From positions 15,634 to 79,633 of the forward strand of contig JBEULP010000062.1 of NCBI GenBank assembly GCA_041287245.1: 64,000 bases of DNA. The letters are read 5' to 3'. Both the position numbers and the translations under genes were made by a program. Shown here piece by piece: positions 1,536-17,239 of the stretch. A model generated the notes under the pieces. It ran no database searches, had not been told where the DNA came from, and saw nothing but the letters and a program-made list of their open reading frames with translations. This DNA comes from Infirmifilum sp. (GTDB taxonomy: Archaea > Thermoproteota > Thermoprotei > Thermofilales > Thermofilaceae). Positions within the stretch are counted from its first letter, which is position 1. Every line of letters begins with the position of its first letter.

Positions 1536-4370
1536 GTGTCTGTGGCTGCTGAACAGCCTGTTACCGCGCTTCGGGGCGTGTTGCATGAGAGGCTTGTGGA
1601 CCTGCTTGAGAGGGAGGGGTATCGTAGCCTAAACTATATTCAGCTCGAGGCTTTGAGGCGCAAGAACTCTCAACACCTGTTAATAATAGCTCCTACGGGC
1701 TCTGGGAAGACGGAGGCAGCTGTCCTCCCCATTCTTGACAGCCTCCTCCGGGAGGGGGGGAAACCAATATATGCTCTCTACGTCACGCCTCTCAGGGCTC
1801 TTAACAGGGACATAAACCTTAGGCTCCGTAGGTTTTTCACCTCTCTGGGCTTCGCGGCTGAGATAAGGCACGGTGATACGCCCCAGGCACAGCGTAGGAG
1901 AATAGCTGAAAACCCACCCCACTTTTTGATAACCACGCCTGAGACTCTCCAGTTCATACTCGTAGACAAACGGTATAGGGAGAGCCTCGGTAATCTCCGC
2001 TGGCTCGTCGTCGACGAGCTTCACGAGCTGATAGACGATAAGAGGGGGGTTCAGCTAAGCCTCGCCCTGGAGCGGCTCCGCTTACTCTCAAGGGGGCTTC
2101 GAGTCATAGCCCTGTCTGCTACGCTGCGCGACCCCCTGGAGGCCCTCGGATTTATAAGCGGCGGCAGGGGAGGAACTGTTATCGAGTGGTCTCAGAGGAA
2201 AAACTACAAAATCATGCTTGCCGACCTTCCAGAAGCACGTGAGGGTGAGCCAGGTGGCCTCGCCCCCGAGCTCTATGAGAGGATAAAGCTTCTCGTTGAT
2301 GAGGTCTCGAAAGGAGGTGTGATAATCTTCACTAATACACGTGACACTGCAGAGCTTGTAGGGCGTATATTGTCCCACGAGTTTAATCTGGACGTCAGGG
2401 TTCACCACGGGAGCCTTTCACGGGAGGAGCGAGAGGAGGCTGAGTCGCTCTTCAAGGAGGGTAAGGTTAAAGCCATCGTAGCAACTTCTAGCCTGGAGCT
2501 GGGGATAGACATCGGCTATGCGAGGCTCGTAGTACAGTTCGGTTCTCCGCGGCAGGCTATAAAGCTCGTACAGCGCATAGGCCGCTCCAGGCACAGGCTC
2601 AGCGAGACCTCCGAGGGGATACTAGTTCCCCTTGGGTTAGAGGACGCCTTAGAGTCAGTGGTTCTCGGGAGGAGGGCTGTTAACGGGGACCTTGAACAAC
2701 TCGACTTGTACACAGCCCCCCTCGACGTCCTTGCCCACCAGGTCGCGGGGCTCCTTATGGAGTACCGCGAGCTCCCCTTGGAGACGCTTTACAGTGTGGT
2801 TACTAGGGCACAACCCTACCACAACCTGACCTACGGGGCTCTCTTGGACCTCCTACGCTTCATGGACTCCATAGGGACTGCCCGACTCCTAGGGGACAAG
2901 GTCAGGGTGGGCAGGCGTACCATCAGCTACTATTACAACGCTGCCTCCATGATACCTGACAACCCCTCCTTCGAAGTGGAGGACATGGCTTCGAGGAGGA
3001 AGATAGGGCACCTAGACTACTCCTTCGCCTCCATCATAGATAGGGGCAAGGTGATCATCCTGGGGGGCAGGGCCTGGACAATAGAGGAGATAGACATAGA
3101 GAGGAACAAGGTCTACGTGACTGAATTCACAAGGGAGCTTGGAGAGCCCCCCGTATGGACAGGCCAGACGCTCCCAGTCGAGTACCGCGTGGCCCGGGAG
3201 GTCGGCGCTTTTTACAGGAGGCTCGACAGCCTCTTAAAGAAGGGTAGGGAGCACGAGCTCTTCTCGCTTTACGCTCTACCCCGTGTAGCCTCCCTCCGGC
3301 TAAAGGAACTCGTTGAGAAGCAGCGGGCTTTCGGCTTCATGCCCTCAGAAGCGGATCTCGTGGTTGAGGTTGCCAGGAAGAACGGGAAGACCCTCGCGGT
3401 CTACCACACATTCCTAGGGACGAAGGGTAACAACCTGCTGGCACTACTCCTAGCCTTCTCGATAAGGGGGTTCTACGGCGTAACTGTAAGGTACTACTCG
3501 GATCCCTACCGGATATTCCTCTACGCAGACAGCGAGCTCCAGCCTGATAAGCTTCGCGATGCAATCTTGAAGGGCGTCCCATGGGCCCTCGAGAGGCTTG
3601 ATGAGGCGGTACGTGACAGTAACGCTTACATGCTCGAGCTTCTCCAGGTTGCGGTACGCCTTGGCGTGCTGGAGAAGGGTAAGGGTAGAGTCGAGTCGGG
3701 CTACCTTTCAACGCTAAAGAGGAAGCTTAGAGGCACTCCGGTAGACCGAGAAGCAATAAGCTCCTGTCTTGTTGAGCACTTCAACCTAAGGGCTGTTGAA
3801 AGCCTGCTTGAGTCCCTAGCCTCTGGCCGGAAGAAGATCCATTTATACACGGTTCCCGATCTAAGCCCAATCGCGCAGCTGATCTTCGAGAAGCCCTTTG
3901 TGAGAACCGGGGTGTTGTCCTCTGGCCTCCCAGTCTCAGCAGTCTTCAACGCGGTGCTAAACCGCCTCGAGAACAGCAGGGTCTTACTCTACTGTATCCA
4001 CTGCGACGAATGGTACGCCGAGCTTCGCGTACGCGAGGCGAAGGACATACGTGCATGCCCCAGGTGTGGCTCGAAGGCTCTAGCCGTGCTCAGACCCTAC
4101 GAGGCGGACAGCTTGAAGGTGATAAAGAAATGGAAAAAGGGTGTTAAGCTGTCCCCAGAGGAGGCGAGGTTCGTGGAGAAGGCGAGACAGACAGCCTCCC
4201 TTTACATGTCATATGGGTATCCCGCGATTCTGGCGCTCGCAGGCCATGGTATAGGACCCTCAACCGCCAAGAGCCTCCTATCGAAGAGCAGGGATACGGA
4301 GACGCTTGTGAAGAACATCCTACTAGCTGAGGCAAACTACACGAGGACTAGAAAATACTGGGAGGAATGA
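1536..4370 (+). CDS. lhr: Lhr-family DEAD/DEAH helicase with C-terminal Cys-rich motif
   Basis: APTGSGKT, TPLRALNRD, DELH, LSAT, VHHGSLS, TSSLELGIDIG, QRIGRS; CIHC...CPRC near C-terminus. Confidence 0.92.
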   Translation: MSVAAEQPVTALRGVLHERLVDLLEREGYRSLNYIQLEALRRKNSQHLLIIAPTGSGKTEAAVLPILDSLLREGGKPIYALYVTPLRALNRDINLRLRRFFTSLGFAAEIRHGDTPQAQRRRIAENPPHFLITTPETLQFILVDKRYRESLGNLRWLVVDELHELIDDKRGVQLSLALERLRLLSRGLRVIALSATLRDPLEALGFISGGRGGTVIEWSQRKNYKIMLADLPEAREGEPGGLAPELYERIKLLVDEVSKGGVIIFTNTRDTAELVGRILSHEFNLDVRVHHGSLSREEREEAESLFKEGKVKAIVATSSLELGIDIGYARLVVQFGSPRQAIKLVQRIGRSRHRLSETSEGILVPLGLEDALESVVLGRRAVNGDLEQLDLYTAPLDVLAHQVAGLLMEYRELPLETLYSVVTRAQPYHNLTYGALLDLLRFMDSIGTARLLGDKVRVGRRTISYYYNAASMIPDNPSFEVEDMASRRKIGHLDYSFASIIDRGKVIILGGRAWTIEEIDIERNKVYVTEFTRELGEPPVWTGQTLPVEYRVAREVGAFYRRLDSLLKKGREHELFSLYALPRVASLRLKELVEKQRAFGFMPSEADLVVEVARKNGKTLAVYHTFLGTKGNNLLALLLAFSIRGFYGVTVRYYSDPYRIFLYADSELQPDKLRDAILKGVPWALERLDEAVRDSNAYMLELLQVAVRLGVLEKGKGRVESGYLSTLKRKLRGTPVDREAISSCLVEHFNLRAVESLLESLASGRKKIHLYTVPDLSPIAQLIFEKPFVRTGVLSSGLPVSAVFNAVLNRLENSRVLLYCIHCDEWYAELRVREAKDIRACPRCGSKALAVLRPYEADSLKVIKKWKKGVKLSPEEARFVEKARQTASLYMSYGYPAILALAGHGIGPSTAKSLLSKSRDTETLVKNILLAEANYTRTRKYWEE

Positions 4371-5487: not shown

Positions 5488-5528
5488 GAAGAGTCTAAAA
5501 CTTCTGTTAAAACTTTTTAGAAAAAGTT

Positions 5529-6011
5529 TTATATTAACCCCTCGAGAGCCTGAAGAGCCTCCTCCATCCAGTTCTCAATCTCGACAACCCTCCCGCACCC
5601 AGAAAGCTTTACACGGGGCCTGACGCCCCAGTTCATTTCGACCAGCAGCCCGTACAGCGCCGCCTGAACGACCTCGAACCTCCGGAACCCTCCATAACTT
5701 TTCAGCTCAACAACCTCCCGGGGGAGACCCTCGACGAACAATACCTGGTCTGCCACCCCGTAGAGCCAGCCGAACCGAAACCTCCAGGCGAGTGGTAGAG
5801 GTGTTGATGCTATCTTCTCGCTCAGTACGAGGCTTAAGTCCCCCCAGAAACGCTCGTGCAGGTAGCGCCCCTCCGCGGCGCCTCTGCCCCTGCCTCTCCG
5901 GTACCTTCCAGCTACCTGGGTTACCGTATATTTCCTCTCATGGGAAGCTAACGCGCGCTCGAAGCGTTGTAGGGATTGGGATAGGAGCGAGTTGACTATG
6001 CTACTTCGCAT
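5529..6011 (-). CDS. PD-(D/E)xK nuclease, RecB/Cas4-like, without Fe-S cysteines
   Basis: GRYLH, GVAD, VVELKS, QAALY motifs; likely ATG at 6011 overlapping the upstream stop. Confidence 0.7.
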   Translation of the reverse strand: MRSSIVNSLLSQSLQRFERALASHERKYTVTQVAGRYRRGRGRGAAEGRYLHERFWGDLSLVLSEKIASTPLPLAWRFRFGWLYGVADQVLFVEGLPREVVELKSYGGFRRFEVVQAALYGLLVEMNWGVRPRVKLSGCGRVVEIENWMEEALQALEGLI

Positions 6012-6957
6012 CGTGTAGACCGTCATCCTCTATTCTGAACTCCGCACTAACCCCCTTGGCGAGCCGGGGGCTGTCGAGAACCTCTACGAGGAAGCTATCC
6101 CCGGTCTTCTTCATTAGGAAGCGGTGTGTACTCGCGTGCGCTATGATGTTCCCACCCGCGGGCAGCTTAACCGCGACACCCCACGCGCTGGGAACGCTAA
6201 CAACCTGGTTCGTGATGACAGCTACAAGGCTGTAGAGCCTGGAGAGCCTCTTAATCCAGTCGAGCATATAGTTGATCCGCTGCTGCCTCATCGCTAGCCT
6301 CTCCCGCCCGCGGAACTGAGCCCTGTAGAGAGCTATAACCGAATCTATGACTACAAGCCTCGCATCATTCTTCAGGTACTTCGACAATTCCCTCACCACA
6401 AATTCTTCAAGCTCGTCGACGCTGAGCGGCCGTACAACATATATGTTCGCCAGGGGGTCTTCAACTCCAAACCTCTTAGCTATAGCCTCAACCCTCTCAG
6501 GGCTAAACGTCCCCTCAGTGTCCACGTAGACTGCAGAGCCCCCCAGCCCGCCGTGCGATGGGGACAGCTGAACCGTGACTGCCAGCTGGTGGCAGAGCTG
6601 TGTCTTACCACTCCCAAACTCACCGGCAAACTCGTAGATATCGTAGGCAGTCAACCCGCCCCCGAGGAGGGAGTCTATGGAGCTAACCCCGGTTGTAAGC
6701 GAATCGCGCTGCCTAAGCATCGAGGCATACTCCTTCCCGCTTATAGCCTTAGCCTCCCAGCCTATAATCCTCCTAGCAGTCCTTACAATCCTGAAGGCTC
6801 TCTCGAAGTCGATTCCAGCCATCTCCTCCAGCTCCTCAGGATTGAAGAGCACGAGGTCTTCCAGTGTTTCAATGCCCGCTGCCTTCAGCCTGGCCACCGT
6901 AACCTTGCCGATCCCCTCCTCATGCAAGAGCTCGTCAACGCTGTGCACCGGCATCAC
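6001..6957 (-). CDS. RadA/Rad51-family recombinase paralog
   Basis: N-terminal HhH (GIGKVT), GEFGSGKTQLCHQL, VDTEGTF, VIDS, RGRERLAMRQQ, TNQV, GGNIIAHASTHR, DSP. Confidence 0.9.
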   Translation of the reverse strand: MMPVHSVDELLHEEGIGKVTVARLKAAGIETLEDLVLFNPEELEEMAGIDFERAFRIVRTARRIIGWEAKAISGKEYASMLRQRDSLTTGVSSIDSLLGGGLTAYDIYEFAGEFGSGKTQLCHQLAVTVQLSPSHGGLGGSAVYVDTEGTFSPERVEAIAKRFGVEDPLANIYVVRPLSVDELEEFVVRELSKYLKNDARLVVIDSVIALYRAQFRGRERLAMRQQRINYMLDWIKRLSRLYSLVAVITNQVVSVPSAWGVAVKLPAGGNIIAHASTHRFLMKKTGDSFLVEVLDSPRLAKGVSAEFRIEDDGLHDAK

Positions 6958-7495
6958 CGCAGAAAACCTCGTCGTCTACAAGACACTTCCCATCCGCTGT
7001 GCAGACAATCCTCCTCGTAAACCTACCTATCTCTTCGAGCCACCTATCCCCGGAAACAACTACAGGCACCTTGTAAGTAGCTGCTATACGCCTAAGGATG
7101 TCCAGCGCGTAGACAATACCACTGTTCGCGTCCCTTGTAAAACGTTGGTCTAGGTCTTCGACGATCACGGGCTTTCTCTCCACGTCGAGCTTCCGGGGAA
7201 GATCGAACAAAAGATACTCGAGGAACTCCCCGTCGAGGACTGCTGGGACATAAAAACTCCTCGGGATTTCAAGGTCTATCCCGCTTACGAGGATAACCCC
7301 GTGGGGTAAAATAACCCTGCTGGAGCAGACCTCGACCTGAGTTGTAAGGGGTTGAAACAGTACCGTGGTTTCTAGGCTGATCCTCGAAGCCTCATCTGCT
7401 AGCTCTCCAAATATCGCTCGGAGCTCCTCATCCCTGAAAACCTTAAGATGGGCTCTCGAGAAGCCCTCCCTTCCTATAACTATCAACGAGCTCAT
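6935..7495 (-). CDS. hypothetical protein, possible degenerate RecA-fold
   Basis: Overlaps both neighbours; VIVEDLD and ILRRIAATYKVPVVVS resemble RecA Walker B and the following helix-strand; no GxxxxGKT. Confidence 0.6.
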   Translation of the reverse strand: MSSLIVIGREGFSRAHLKVFRDEELRAIFGELADEASRISLETTVLFQPLTTQVEVCSSRVILPHGVILVSGIDLEIPRSFYVPAVLDGEFLEYLLFDLPRKLDVERKPVIVEDLDQRFTRDANSGIVYALDILRRIAATYKVPVVVSGDRWLEEIGRFTRRIVCTADGKCLVDDEVFCGDAGAQR

Positions 7496-7863
7496 AGGCC
7501 CAGCCTCTCCCTCCCCCTCCTGGCTATCACTTGTAGCCAGGGGTTGTCTGCTATAAATGAGGGTGTGCCCGCGTCCTCTACCGGAGGGCTCTCATGAGTT
7601 GTCTCCTCACTCTCCTCCTCCCTGGGTACTACGATGCCGACTAGCTCTCTGAGCTCCCGAAGCCTACGGTACAGGTTAATTCCTTTCTCCGAGAGAGAGA
7701 CGAGGTGTATTCTTCCTTTTTTCCTCGTTCTAATCAAGGAGTATTTTTCTAAAAGCTCTACCGCCTCCTTTGCCTTTTTCACGTTCTTAGATAATTCCAC
7801 AAGGGTTTTTTCTCCCTCTCCAATCTTCCAGACCCAGAAGATTATACGTTCAAACTCGTCCAC
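7492..7863 (-). CDS. winged helix-turn-helix protein
   Basis: AVELLEKYSLIRTRKKGRIHLVSLSEKG wHTH pattern; acidic linker and C-terminal DNPWLQVI peptide. Confidence 0.7.
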   Translation of the reverse strand: MDEFERIIFWVWKIGEGEKTLVELSKNVKKAKEAVELLEKYSLIRTRKKGRIHLVSLSEKGINLYRRLRELRELVGIVVPREEESEETTHESPPVEDAGTPSFIADNPWLQVIARRGRERLGL

Positions 7864-7887
7864 AAGGATTATTGGATTGTTTATGTA

Positions 7888-7950
7888 TAAATATGTTATT
7901 ATTGAGTATAATCTTGTTATTGTTAGTAGCCGGCGAAAATAACATTATAA
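7888..7950. promoter_or_regulatory. Divergent promoter region with TAAnnwTGTTA-like sites
   Basis: TAAATATGTTA (7888-7898) and TAATCTTGTTA (7909-7919) are 21 bp apart; minus-strand TTTATA lies about 25 bp before the GTG at 7863. Confidence 0.45.
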
Positions 7951-7972: not shown

Positions 7973-8752
7973 ATGTCTACAGAGCTCAAGAAAAAGATAT
8001 TCTGCCCCCAATGCCAAGACTACGTAAAACCAAGGGTCGTTAGAAGCTTCACCCTCTCAGGAGAAGTGATAATAGAGTATTATTGCCCGAAGCACGGCTT
8101 CATCACCTCTGAGAGGAAGACACTACCCCTCCCCCAGAGGAACATAACCCCAGGCGGGCTCTACATAGTTTTTGAGGGCATTGATGGAAGCGGGAAGACA
8201 ACCCAGGCGGTAATGCTCTACGAGTACCTTTCGAGGAAAAACTACGAGGTAGTATTAGTCAGGGAGCCCTGGGTGAAGGCGATAAAGGACTTCCTGTATA
8301 AACACGACCTAGACCCCGACGCCGAAGCGTACCTGTTCGCAGCCGACCGGATAATCCTTCAAAAGGAAGTGGTGCTTCCTGCACTCGAAGCTGGAAAGAT
8401 AGTTATTTCAGACCGCTCGGTATTCGCGAGCCTAGCGTATCAGGCCGCCCGGGGCCTACCGGAGGAGTTTATCATGGCTATTAACCGCTCCATACGCCTA
8501 CCCGACATTGTGATCCTACTTGACCTCAACCCGGATGAGGCTGTGAAGCGGCTTAAAAACAGGGGTGAGACCACGAGGTTCGAGGATCCCGAGTTTATGG
8601 TGAAGGTTCGAGACAAGTATTTGAGCCTCGCCCAGAACTACAACTCCCTATTCGTGGTAGTCGACGCTTCAAAGCCGATCCGAGAGGTTCACCGGGATAT
8701 CATCGCAAAGCTAAAGGAAAGGCTGGGCCACAGGTCCATCAACCTGGACTAG
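7973..8752 (+). CDS. tmk: thymidylate kinase with N-terminal Zn-ribbon extension
   Basis: FEGIDGSGKTTQ, REP, LFAADR, SDR..SLAYQ; N-terminal CPQC...CPKH. Confidence 0.9.
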   Translation: MSTELKKKIFCPQCQDYVKPRVVRSFTLSGEVIIEYYCPKHGFITSERKTLPLPQRNITPGGLYIVFEGIDGSGKTTQAVMLYEYLSRKNYEVVLVREPWVKAIKDFLYKHDLDPDAEAYLFAADRIILQKEVVLPALEAGKIVISDRSVFASLAYQAARGLPEEFIMAINRSIRLPDIVILLDLNPDEAVKRLKNRGETTRFEDPEFMVKVRDKYLSLAQNYNSLFVVVDASKPIREVHRDIIAKLKERLGHRSINLD

Positions 8753-12041: not shown

Positions 12042-12146
12042 AGTATAACATTGTTATACTTTATATTAACAATGTTATATTTTTCAAAAATAATGTTTTG
12101 CTACAACATACTAAGGTTATATTCAAATATAACATAGTTATTACAA
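12042..12146. repeat. five 21-bp-period degenerate palindromic repeats
   Basis: agtataacattgttatacttt / atattaacaatgttatatttt / tcaaaaataatgttttgctac / aacatactaaggttatattca / aatataacatagttattacaa. Confidence 0.75.
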
Positions 12147-15864: not shown

Positions 15865-17215
15865 CATAAGCTGAAAGCCTCGCCCCTTTAGGGCGGGGGT
15901 GAGTAGAAACTCTTATAAACCTCTCTTGGTTTGTTGTCTCCGGGGGGCATAGAGTTCTACGAGGGCATAAAGAGGAGAGGTAGGGGTGTTCTTTGTGGGC
16001 GATGAGGGTTTCCTAACCCTGACTGTCGGGGTGAGGGTTAGCCCCGAGCCCGAGGTGGTAGAACTCTTGAAGAGGTATAGGTCTGCCCTGTGGCACTCCA
16101 TAAGGGCTATACACGGCCACGTGGTGAGGAGCAACTTGAAGAGGGCGCCATCCCTCTCAACCACGCACAGGCTTCTCTACAACGACCTCAGGGAGGGGTT
16201 CGGCCTCCCGTCGAGAATCGCAATTGATTGTTACAGGGAGGCCCTGGCAATCTACAAGTCTTGGCTTAACAATAGGGACAGAGGCAGACTGCCAACTCCG
16301 AGAAAACTAAGGATGTGGCTTACGCACGGGCAAGGGTATAGAATTAGAGACGGCTTCATCGAGATCATCGGTGGTATCAGGCTCAAAATCGTTGGTTGGG
16401 ATAGGAGATATGATTCTTACGAGAATAGAGAGGCTAGGCTTGTGTTCAGAGGAGGCAAAATGTTTCTAATGGTGGTGAAGAGGATCCCGAAGCCCGAGAA
16501 GATAAAGTCCTCAGGAGTTCTCGCGGTCGACGTGAACGAGAAGAAGATCGTGTTCGGAAATAGCGGGGCCTCCAAGTCTATTGATACGCCTGTGGGGAAG
16601 GCCCTCCACTACAAAAGGCTCGCTGAGGAGTTGCAGAGAAAGTACTCGAACGGCAAGTACAGGCCCTGGCTGGCGAGGAGGGGGATTCGCGAGAGAATAA
16701 AGAGTTTCGATAGAAAGGCTAGAAACGCCGTCGAGGACTGGGCTAGGAAGACGGCCCTAGAGATCGTGAGAGAGGCCGAGAGGCACTCCTACGCGGTCGC
16801 GAGGGAGGGCTTGAACGGACTGGTGGAGTCCTTGAGGAAGCTGCCGAAGGATCATAGGGTGAAGCTGATGATACTGTCGTACAAAAGGCTGGGATACTGG
16901 ATCGACTGGCAGGCCTCGAAGCACGGCGTGCCCGTCGTAGTCGTGGATCCGAGGAACACCTCATCGACATGCCCAAGGTGCGGGTCGAAACTGAGAGGAA
17001 GCGGCTACAGGAGGCTGAGATGCCCGAGATGCGGGTTTGAGGCGGACAGAGATTTCATAGCGCTGCTGAACATCGAGAAAAAAGCCCTACAAGAAATGGG
17101 AGGAGCTCTGACCCCCTCGACTGCCCCGCAGATGAAAGATGTAAACCCGAATAGATGCCGGGGAACCTCCCCGCCCCGAAGGAACCCTCGCCCTTCAGGG
17201 CGGGGAGGAGGTCAG
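15865..17215 (+). mobile_element. IS200/IS605-family tnpB-only element (IS1341-like), 1351 bp
   Basis: Left hairpin AAAG-CCTCGCCCCTTTAGGGCGGGG; right hairpin GAAC-CCTCGCCCTTCAGGGCGGGG followed by AGGAGGTCAG; removal restores the C69 reading frame; no tnpA, no TSD. Confidence 0.92.
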
Positions 17216-17239
17216 CGATTGCGACGCCGTACTCGTTAA
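15986..17239 (+). CDS. tnpB: RNA-guided endonuclease TnpB
   Basis: RuvC-I LAVDVN, RuvC-II VAREGL, TSSTCPRCG...CPRCG Zn finger, RuvC-III ADRD..A.LNI. Confidence 0.93.
   Translation: MFFVGDEGFLTLTVGVRVSPEPEVVELLKRYRSALWHSIRAIHGHVVRSNLKRAPSLSTTHRLLYNDLREGFGLPSRIAIDCYREALAIYKSWLNNRDRGRLPTPRKLRMWLTHGQGYRIRDGFIEIIGGIRLKIVGWDRRYDSYENREARLVFRGGKMFLMVVKRIPKPEKIKSSGVLAVDVNEKKIVFGNSGASKSIDTPVGKALHYKRLAEELQRKYSNGKYRPWLARRGIRERIKSFDRKARNAVEDWARKTALEIVREAERHSYAVAREGLNGLVESLRKLPKDHRVKLMILSYKRLGYWIDWQASKHGVPVVVVDPRNTSSTCPRCGSKLRGSGYRRLRCPRCGFEADRDFIALLNIEKKALQEMGGALTPSTAPQMKDVNPNRCRGTSPPRRNPRPSGRGGGQRLRRRTR

Follow-up and report, generated by a model that had tools for sequence, protein, structure and literature searches.

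Results

A four-gene operon built around a RadA paralog

The window analyzed here is a stretch of 64,000 nucleotides from an Infirmifilum sp. genome (assembly GCA_041287245.1, contig JBEULP010000062.1, positions 15,634 to 79,633); the assembly, designated G000, comprises 1.81 Mb in 119 contigs. Genomes, contigs, loci, genera and families are referred to by our own handles (G, C, L, g and f). We examined a module of four minus-strand genes in this window, whose products, numbered P0001 to P0004 in transcription order, are a winged-helix protein, a miniature RadA paralog, a full-length RadA paralog here called RadA2, and a nuclease (Table 1). As reported in a first-pass annotation of the sequence, each gene overlaps the next, and its open reading frame (ORF) coordinates were confirmed: the overlaps are 4 nt (ATGA) at 7492-7495, 23 nt at 6935-6957, and 11 nt at 6001-6011. 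For the nuclease, the ATG at 6011 is the probable start codon; the product then has 160 aa, as does its database entry. A TATA box (TTTATA, 7891-7886) lies 23-28 bp before the first GTG of P0001, a spacing typical of leaderless archaeal transcripts, which suggests that the operon transcript is leaderless. The module has a GC content of 0.55 versus 0.52 for the window, it is flanked by an iolG-like gene and tmk, and the named homologs of its proteins come from Infirmifilum and Thermofilum.

Table 1. Coordinates of the module genes and associated features in the window
Feature	Position	Strand	Description
Winged-helix protein P0001	7492..7863	-	123 aa; winged helix (residues 1-78), acidic linker, and C-terminal arcadin-2-type helix
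Tail motif PxFxxxNPWLxV of P0001	7510..7575	-	Homologous to the crenactin-binding helix of arcadin-2
Miniature RadA paralog P0002	6935..7495	-	186 aa; N-terminal helical domain and reduced core (predicted); no Walker A; L1/L2 shortened
Full-length RadA paralog RadA2 (P0003)	6001..6957	-	318 aa; retains the DNA-binding Arg and the catalytic residues; FxxA Phe and NSDHQ segment replaced
Nuclease P0004	5529..6011	-	Predicted Cas4/RecB-fold PD-(D/E)XK; no Fe-S cysteine set; ORF open from 6026
Possible terminator	5509..5530	-	A/T inverted repeat with T runs, immediately past the stop codon of the nuclease gene; by sequence inspection
Distal palindrome ATAAC-N3-GTTAT	7908..7920		1 mismatch; precedes the first gene by 57 bp
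Second palindrome	7887..7899		21 bp from the first; overlaps the TATA box; likely repressor operator
Five-copy palindrome array	12045..12141		Exact 21-bp period; AT-rich intergenic; mismatches 0, 1, 3, 2, 0; candidate P0001 binding array

RadA2 keeps the catalytic residues and lacks the FxxA phenylalanine

The intact Walker A and B motifs and N-terminal helix-hairpin-helix (HhH) domain noticed at first pass were borne out by profile searches (Pfam Rad51, E 2e-62; HHH_5, E 2.5e-8), and the catalytic Glu is also present. G000 has three RadA-like genes. The idea of a dedicated recombination system presupposed that the window gene is not the only canonical RadA of its genome, and a separate canonical radA was found on contig C25, which scores 445 bits with TIGR02236 against a cut-off of 361. 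RadA2, 42% identical to the C25 protein, stays below this cut-off at 263.5 bits; the looser RadA model NF003301 is passed by both (282 bits for RadA2, against a cut-off of 259). RadA2 fails the RadB criteria, since it has the HhH domain and scores 111 versus 172 bits with TIGR02237, and it is distinct from the paralogs RadB and aRadC. A quick maximum-likelihood tree with 97 rows, all archaeal and 10 of them partial copies, places RadA2 in a 61-row clade apart from the canonical RadAs (Shimodaira-Hasegawa-like approximate likelihood ratio test [SH-aLRT], 97). Across 301 genomes of the phylum, scores exceeded 450 bits only in the Thermofilales and six genomes of family f10.

Residues were counted in 20 canonical RadAs and 51 clade members, with 26 rows dropped (10 partial, 13 outlying paralogs, and 3 near-duplicates). 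All 51 paralogs retain Lys in Walker A, Asp in Walker B, the catalytic Glu, the second Arg of L1, the His of L2 and the C-terminal Asp. The FxxA motif drives RadA/RAD51 polymerization; its Phe is found in 20/20 canonical RadAs versus 0/51 paralogs, and P0003 reads AISG at this position. The segment that receives FxxA (NSDHQ) is likewise replaced in the RadA2 paralogs.

Other RadA-like genes were recorded along the way. The third one of G000 (L073:4021-5267; C96:61021-62344) has no N-terminal domain and, as judged by eye, another degenerate RecA-like ORF overlaps it. Families f2, f4, f6, and f8 have RadA-like pairs in tandem as well (L063-L069). Outside the class, operons in f42, f52, and f34 (L134-L138, L210, L212, and L266) combine a RadA paralog with a SWIM-type gene and a gene for a small degenerate partner, and the RadA paralogs of the f42 and f52 operons fall in the RadA2 clade.

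P0002 and P0004 have predicted RAD51-like and Cas4/RecB folds

Pfam and NCBIfam give no family name for either P0002 or P0004. The AlphaFold model of P0002, built from a 30-row alignment, has a predicted local distance difference test (pLDDT) score of 90.7, and its best Foldseek matches are RAD51 (E 3.5e-4). VIA-align, a second look at Foldseek's own matches, paired 177-182 of the 186 residues with full-length RAD51/Dmc1, N-terminal domain included (best alignment: Z 12.5, root mean square deviation 3.1, 177 aligned). Profile comparison of P0002 with RadA2 returned a probability of 93.8, with gaps at L1 and L2, and ESM Atlas returned RadA rows at template modeling (TM) scores of 0.51-0.52, which we treat as leads only. 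The Walker A pattern GxxxxGK[TS] is present in 0/30 homologs. P0002 is predicted to be a miniature RAD51-like fold without the ATP-binding motif, in line with the degenerate RecA fold proposed at first pass. Strong matches were confined to 9 of the 301 phylum genomes, all Thermofilales; the P0002-only profile was rebuilt after an iterative search from P0002 had drifted into all RadAs.

The P0004 model (pLDDT 89.5) has SSO0001, RecE and DinG-linked nuclease domains as its top structural matches, and we predict a Cas4/RecB-fold PD-(D/E)XK nuclease. The H, D, ExK and QxxxY motifs and the missing Fe-S cysteine set, both seen in the single sequence beforehand, hold across the family: H57, D93, E107-x-K109, and Q121-xxx-Y125 are invariant in 43/43 aligned homologs, and no cysteine is. 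P0004 scores 15 versus 65 bits with the CRISPR Cas4 model TIGR00372, and its closest relatives outside the order are four-cysteine solo Cas4-like proteins. A sequence search of the PDB with the nuclease profile gave nothing useful. An apparent co-occurrence of nuclease-profile matches with RadA2 in the same six f10 genomes was not taken as support, as the proteins inspected, from G330 and from two genomes of f10, are solo Cas4 with four cysteines.

P0001 carries an arcadin-2-type tail behind a predicted winged helix

Residues 1-78 of P0001 gave profile matches to the winged-helix structures of AF_1382 (E 2e-6), AspA (E 1e-4), and the MarR family; ESM Atlas also returned winged-helix rows, as leads only. 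Among P0001 homologs, the linker varies freely and the tail PxFxxxNPWLxV is kept. A profile made from module-linked tails alone matched exactly four G000 ORFs at E<0.01, the motif always lying near the C terminus, and one of these ORFs directly follows the crenactin gene in the arcade cluster on C49. The G000 crenactin was identified by its similarity to PDB 4CJ7 (E 4e-119) and its NF053560 match; the gene after it is arcadin-2 by position and tail only, with no match to NF053561, the arcadin-2 model. P0001 likewise shows no NF053561 match. Furthermore, of the ORFs picked downstream of crenactin genes, 33 have C termini that the module-tail profile matches at E 1e-3 or better. In G066, the crenactin resembles the 4CJ7 chain (by eye), and the next gene encodes 203 residues, scores above the arcadin-2 cut-off, and ends in N-E-W-V-K-I-L-R. 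According to published work on this complex (PMC5173319), residues 187-203 of arcadin-2 bind the hydrophobic groove of crenactin, probably via a Trp, with a dissociation constant of 31 nM for the complex; the arcadin-2 peptide depolymerizes crenactin filaments, and ParR occupies the same groove on ParM. By sequence comparison, the P0001 tail is homologous to this crenactin-binding helix.

Within the 301 phylum genomes, the tail was found in 89/112 crenactin-bearing versus 5/189 crenactin-less genomes. The 23 crenactin genomes without a match comprise 20 with an N-E-W variant and 3 of genus g81, one of which was read and has a divergent tail; the 5 tail-positive, crenactin-less genomes comprise two with internal stops, two that are partial, and one strong case. 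Beside RadA2, the tail is carried by a winged helix upstream or a C2H2 zinc finger downstream, and beside a sister RadA by another N-terminal domain (L261).

Additional tail proteins were observed. A protein with a helix-turn-helix (HTH) and a coiled coil ends in the same tail on G000 C64 (L071:5904-6593). Its profile matches 103/120 class genomes, some of the matches being the coil-plus-tail of other proteins, and has no match in f56 (0/9) or f11 (0/3), of which five genomes are also without crenactin or tail (small searches, no positive control); the f9 orthologs keep a P...NxW variant in 10/10 cases. Another tail protein (L175:2953-3351) lies on G004:C2, a 31.5-kb extra contig with an integrase, and others in mobile-looking regions at L072 (G000 C26:5486-6313), L183, and L170, the last from a genome where crenactin was not found. 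At L263, a RadA paralog of G123 is ~300 bp from the end of the gene in arcadin-2 position, with one short ORF between; at L264, the distance in G318 is ~12 kb.

Palindromes with a 21-bp period lie at the operon promoter and in dispersed arrays

The two ATAAC-N3-GTTAT palindromes upstream of P0001 are spaced by 21 bp, with the proximal one overlapping the TATA box, and their place at the operon promoter lends support to the self-regulation suggested earlier for the module. In genus g1 and g4 promoters, an equivalent of the distal site (≤2 mismatches) is found at -54 to -59 in 8/9 cases and one of the proximal site (≤3 mismatches) at -33 to -38 in 9/9. The pattern was derived from these promoters; the promoter matches therefore follow by construction, and the dispersed arrays do not. 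In the window, 6 matches at one mismatch were counted versus 1.2 expected, and 0 of 100 shuffles reached 6. Genome-wide in G000, 21 bp is the commonest palindrome spacing (6 pairs), and a third array lies at C18:1727-1845 between convergent Cas6-like and Csx1-like genes, named by eye.

Arrays of 4-5 sites with the 21-bp period are dispersed across genus g1. Six other g1 genomes have 15, 5, 3, 5, 6, and 7 palindrome pairs, with 0-1 in the reversed control. The module promoter holds the sole pair in G010 and G019, and G012 has one pair elsewhere; no pairs were found in G009, G015, G022, G025, G066, or G152. G026, one of five genomes, has a 16-bp palindrome of its own, which occurs three times and only upstream of the divergent winged-helix gene. 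Two other accounts of these regions were set aside. The Sulfolobus-type damage box ANTTTC was dropped, being in only 5/16 upstream regions, and copies of a miniature inverted-repeat transposable element (MITE) are not favored between species (flank identity 0.23-0.53), although within G001 the arrays may be such copies.

The arrays bear on an alternative in which P0001 is chiefly a partition adaptor with crenactin as the motor, and the recombination genes are co-regulated passengers or serve segregation. Its architecture parallels ParR and AspA; AspA recognizes a palindrome that precedes its own gene, and it spreads (PMC5120986). In the 15 loci read and in G000, the arrays separate unrelated genes, whether in tandem, divergent or convergent arrangement, and comparison of the genomes shows little conservation of the array spacers and flanks, as would suit attachment sites; the tail proteins on the integrase contig and in other mobile-looking regions also fit. 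However, the arrays are scattered round the chromosome at 3-8 places per genome rather than clustered, and are confined to genus g1 among those tested. Several are near tRNAs, CRISPR-accessory or toxin-antitoxin-like genes, and three G001 arrays have 63-70% of their spacer letters in common, which points to copying. We consider this alternative unlikely.

The gene order is conserved, and some relatives carry the module in DNA-transfer-like clusters

We collected 39 RadA2 loci from 34 of 41 genomes; several are cut by contig ends, partners were counted within 2.5 kb, and the partner profiles were built from these same loci. The tail gene was near RadA2 in 23 loci, the mini-paralog in 21, the nuclease in 21, the winged helix in 20, and a SWIM-type gene in 15. 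All four module genes occur together in 12 loci, 11 of them in the window's order, so that the gene order proved to be conserved in relatives, as the first-pass annotation had presupposed. Wherever the mini-paralog was seen (21 loci), its gene immediately precedes that of RadA2. The operon in the window has no SWIM-type gene; one is on G000 C38, recognized by its CxC...CxH pattern only, with no Pfam or NCBIfam match. It follows a family-B polymerase gene there (L291:4106-6613).

In G000 and other genus-g1 genomes, the module lies among housekeeping genes. In G005 (a second copy), G025, G026, and G030, by comparison, the module or its core is inside a ~35-kb DNA-transfer-like cluster that encodes ParA and ParB, a VirB11-type ATPase, ATPases resembling VirB4/CedB/CedD and, in most cases, a Rad3-type helicase, together with pilin-like proteins recognized by eye. 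Such clusters recall the Ups/Ced DNA-exchange systems (PMC11868833) or a conjugative island. A homologous cluster was seen on G000 C64 (C64:6019-15574; L290/L071), with a HerA/CedD-like ATPase, membrane proteins, ParA/MinD, a VirB11-type ATPase and a Rad3-type helicase directly before the HTH-coil-tail gene.

The module might therefore be the recombination arm of a Ced/Ups-like or conjugative DNA-transfer system, one that processes incoming DNA and pairs it, with the genus copy domesticated. This is possible, if somewhat unlikely. Beyond the four clusters, C64 of G000 has retained homologs of several cluster genes side by side, namely the Rad3-type helicase (57% identity), the VirB11-type ATPase, ParA and the HerA-type ATPase, and C38 has the SWIM-type gene. 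On the other hand, genus-g1 modules sit in their housekeeping surroundings, with canonical radA 3-7 kb away in 6/6 genus relatives whose genomes are complete or nearly so (G000 has it on a separate contig); no homolog of the cluster pilins, TadC-like or large membrane proteins was found in G000 at E 1e-4; all Ced and VirB4 matches are far below their cut-offs; and the G005 cluster, with a GC content of 0.52-0.65 versus 0.42-0.50, looks acquired.

The first-pass annotation had offered a recombination mediator, repair or defense system. The mediator-like character, with an active-looking and an inactive RecA fold side by side, was supported, and the defense role was not. An anti-virus or anti-plasmid system with the nuclease as effector would suit the pairing of nuclease and ATPase and the arrays near CRISPR-accessory genes; yet PADLOC gave no match for three of the four proteins and one weak, partial match for RadA, the genes keep one chromosomal neighborhood across the genus, and the GC content of the module is close to that of the window. 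We regard a defense system as highly improbable.

A proposed accessory recombination unit with a link to crenactin

We propose, with a probability of about 0.5, that the module is an accessory recombination unit in which RadA2 and the mini-RadA act with the nuclease, and in which the winged helix likely binds the palindrome arrays and would link that DNA to crenactin. The nuclease would trim DNA to single strands. By analogy to Rad51-paralog complexes, RadA2 and P0002 would form a non-polymerizing pair that, with the SWIM-type protein, may cap or nucleate canonical RadA filaments. Judging from the position of the sites, a winged-helix dimer would bind the palindromes over its own TATA box and repress the operon, and could bind the dispersed arrays cooperatively on one helix face. 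The P0001 tail, by homology, may plug the hydrophobic groove of crenactin, as arcadin-2 does there and ParR does on ParM. The alternatives overlap with this proposal in part; the DNA-transfer reading is compatible with it and names the substrate.

Several observations weigh against the proposal. For P0001, the AspA match is at the winged-helix level only and weaker than that of AF_1382, and two module tails are shortened to NPW only (G016 and G019). The depolymerization of crenactin by arcadin-2 fits sequestering as well as tethering. Moreover, the peptide with measured binding has N-E-W without the PxF part, and the module-tail profile misses all 20 genomes of the N-E-W family at E 0.01; the tail homology thus rests on position, alignment and intermediates (L082). 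Arcadin-2 itself and the relatedness of genomes account for most of the co-occurrence of tail and crenactin. As for the arrays, such palindrome pairs are missing from G015, G022, and G025 despite the presence of the winged-helix gene, and the array binder could be a protein other than P0001. Finally, the partners vary: the nuclease is not adjacent to RadA2 in genus g9 (G015 and G020-G022), G012, or G013, the mini-paralog and the winged helix are often missing in family f2, G012 and G017 have broken-looking upstream genes, and RadA2 stands without a nearby partner in 4 of the 39 Thermofilales loci and alone in the five f10 loci read.

The solitary RadA2 genes would suit a regulon rather than a complex, with P0001 as an ordinary repressor whose tail is vestigial or serves crenactin titration, and RadA2 as a stand-alone back-up recombinase; the full set of catalytic residues in RadA2 and its passing of NF003301 point the same way. 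The loss of the FxxA Phe in every paralog counted argues against this view, as do the constant place of the mini-paralog and a tail that is kept while the linker varies, and we think it quite unlikely.

A further extension of the accessory-unit proposal is a chromosomal ParMRC-like system, with crenactin as the motor, P0001 as the adaptor and the 21-bp-period arrays as attachment sites; with the adaptor also at the head of an operon for an archaeal Rad51-paralog complex and a nuclease, recombination sites or incoming DNA would be handed to the actin cytoskeleton. We find this extension rather unlikely. If true, it would provide the first DNA-related function of crenactin, the cellular role of which two reviews call unresolved (PMC10936438 and PMC7613921), and an archaeal parallel to the actin-driven movement of DNA breaks. 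The candidate adaptor, the candidate DNA sites and the predicted actin-binding peptide come from a thermophile and are testable with purified proteins. In addition, a RadA paralog without the polymerization Phe next to an ATP-less mini copy offers a minimal model for how Rad51-paralog complexes can arise.

Comparison with known systems

By the tests applied, the module is none of the following: a canonical RadA, RadB, arcadin-2, CRISPR Cas4, the PolB2 operon, or a one-locus type II partition system. Like the Rad51-paralog complexes (Rad55-Rad57, BCDX2/CX3, and Shu [SWS1-SWSAP1 or Shu2-Shu1-Psy3-Csm2]), it pairs a RAD51-fold protein that looks ATPase-competent with a degenerate one. In Shu (PMC6316741), a SWIM-domain protein and Rad51 paralogs form a complex that aids recombinase loading; the SWIM-type protein beside RadA2 in 15/39 loci, recognized by its CxC...CxH pattern, recalls that partner. 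Unlike the eukaryotic complexes, it is archaeal and operon-encoded, with a nuclease and an actin-tagged DNA-binding protein and no SWIM gene in the operon; the likeness is drawn by analogy, the RadA tree comprising archaeal sequences only. The PolB2 mutasome operon, with PolB2, an inactivated RadA and arCOG07300 (PMC4104785), likewise has a severely degenerate RadA-family protein in a repair setting; the present module has no polymerase, and an intact-looking RadA and a nuclease instead.

P0001 has in common with arcadin-2 (Rkd2, NF053561; PDB 5LY3; PMC5173319) a C-terminal N-x-W-h-x-h-L-x-x-R helix after a variable linker, and differs from it by its winged-helix body, its location outside the arcade cluster on C49, and the missing NF053561 match. 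P0001 resembles AspA of pNOB8 and ParR of ParMRC (PMC5120986 and PMC5173319) in its small size and predicted DNA binding, in the palindromes ahead of its own gene, and in the repetition of the sites. In contrast to those systems, its operon has no partition NTPase, crenactin is on another contig, the arrays are dispersed, and recombination genes lie downstream; an actin, a candidate adaptor and repeated sites are all in G000, but at separate loci rather than at one. P0004 has the fold and the H/D/ExK/QxxxY motifs of solo Cas4/RecB nucleases (SSO0001, Pcal_0546, RecE, and MGME1); unlike solo and CRISPR Cas4, it has no Fe-S cysteines, is 160 aa long, and has no cas genes nearby.

The module is real, conserved, and apparently undescribed in print. 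Neither the operon, nor the arrays, nor the tail in any protein but arcadin-2 is described in the full-text literature searched, including passages of PMC10936438, PMC12722695, PMC4858521, and PMC7613921; most subscription papers lay outside this search, and arCOG tables in supplements may list the genes.

Neighboring genes

At the inverted repeat after the nuclease gene, the terminator scan made no call. The Lhr helicase gene (1536-4370) is convergent with the module and is also near canonical radA in genus-g1 relatives. On the other side, a thymidylate kinase with an N-terminal zinc ribbon (7973-8752) is divergent from the module, and the promoter palindromes lie in the intergenic region common to both. 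Further along the window, an ORF at 15986-17239 resembles a TnpB/IS200-605 nuclease, as judged by eye.

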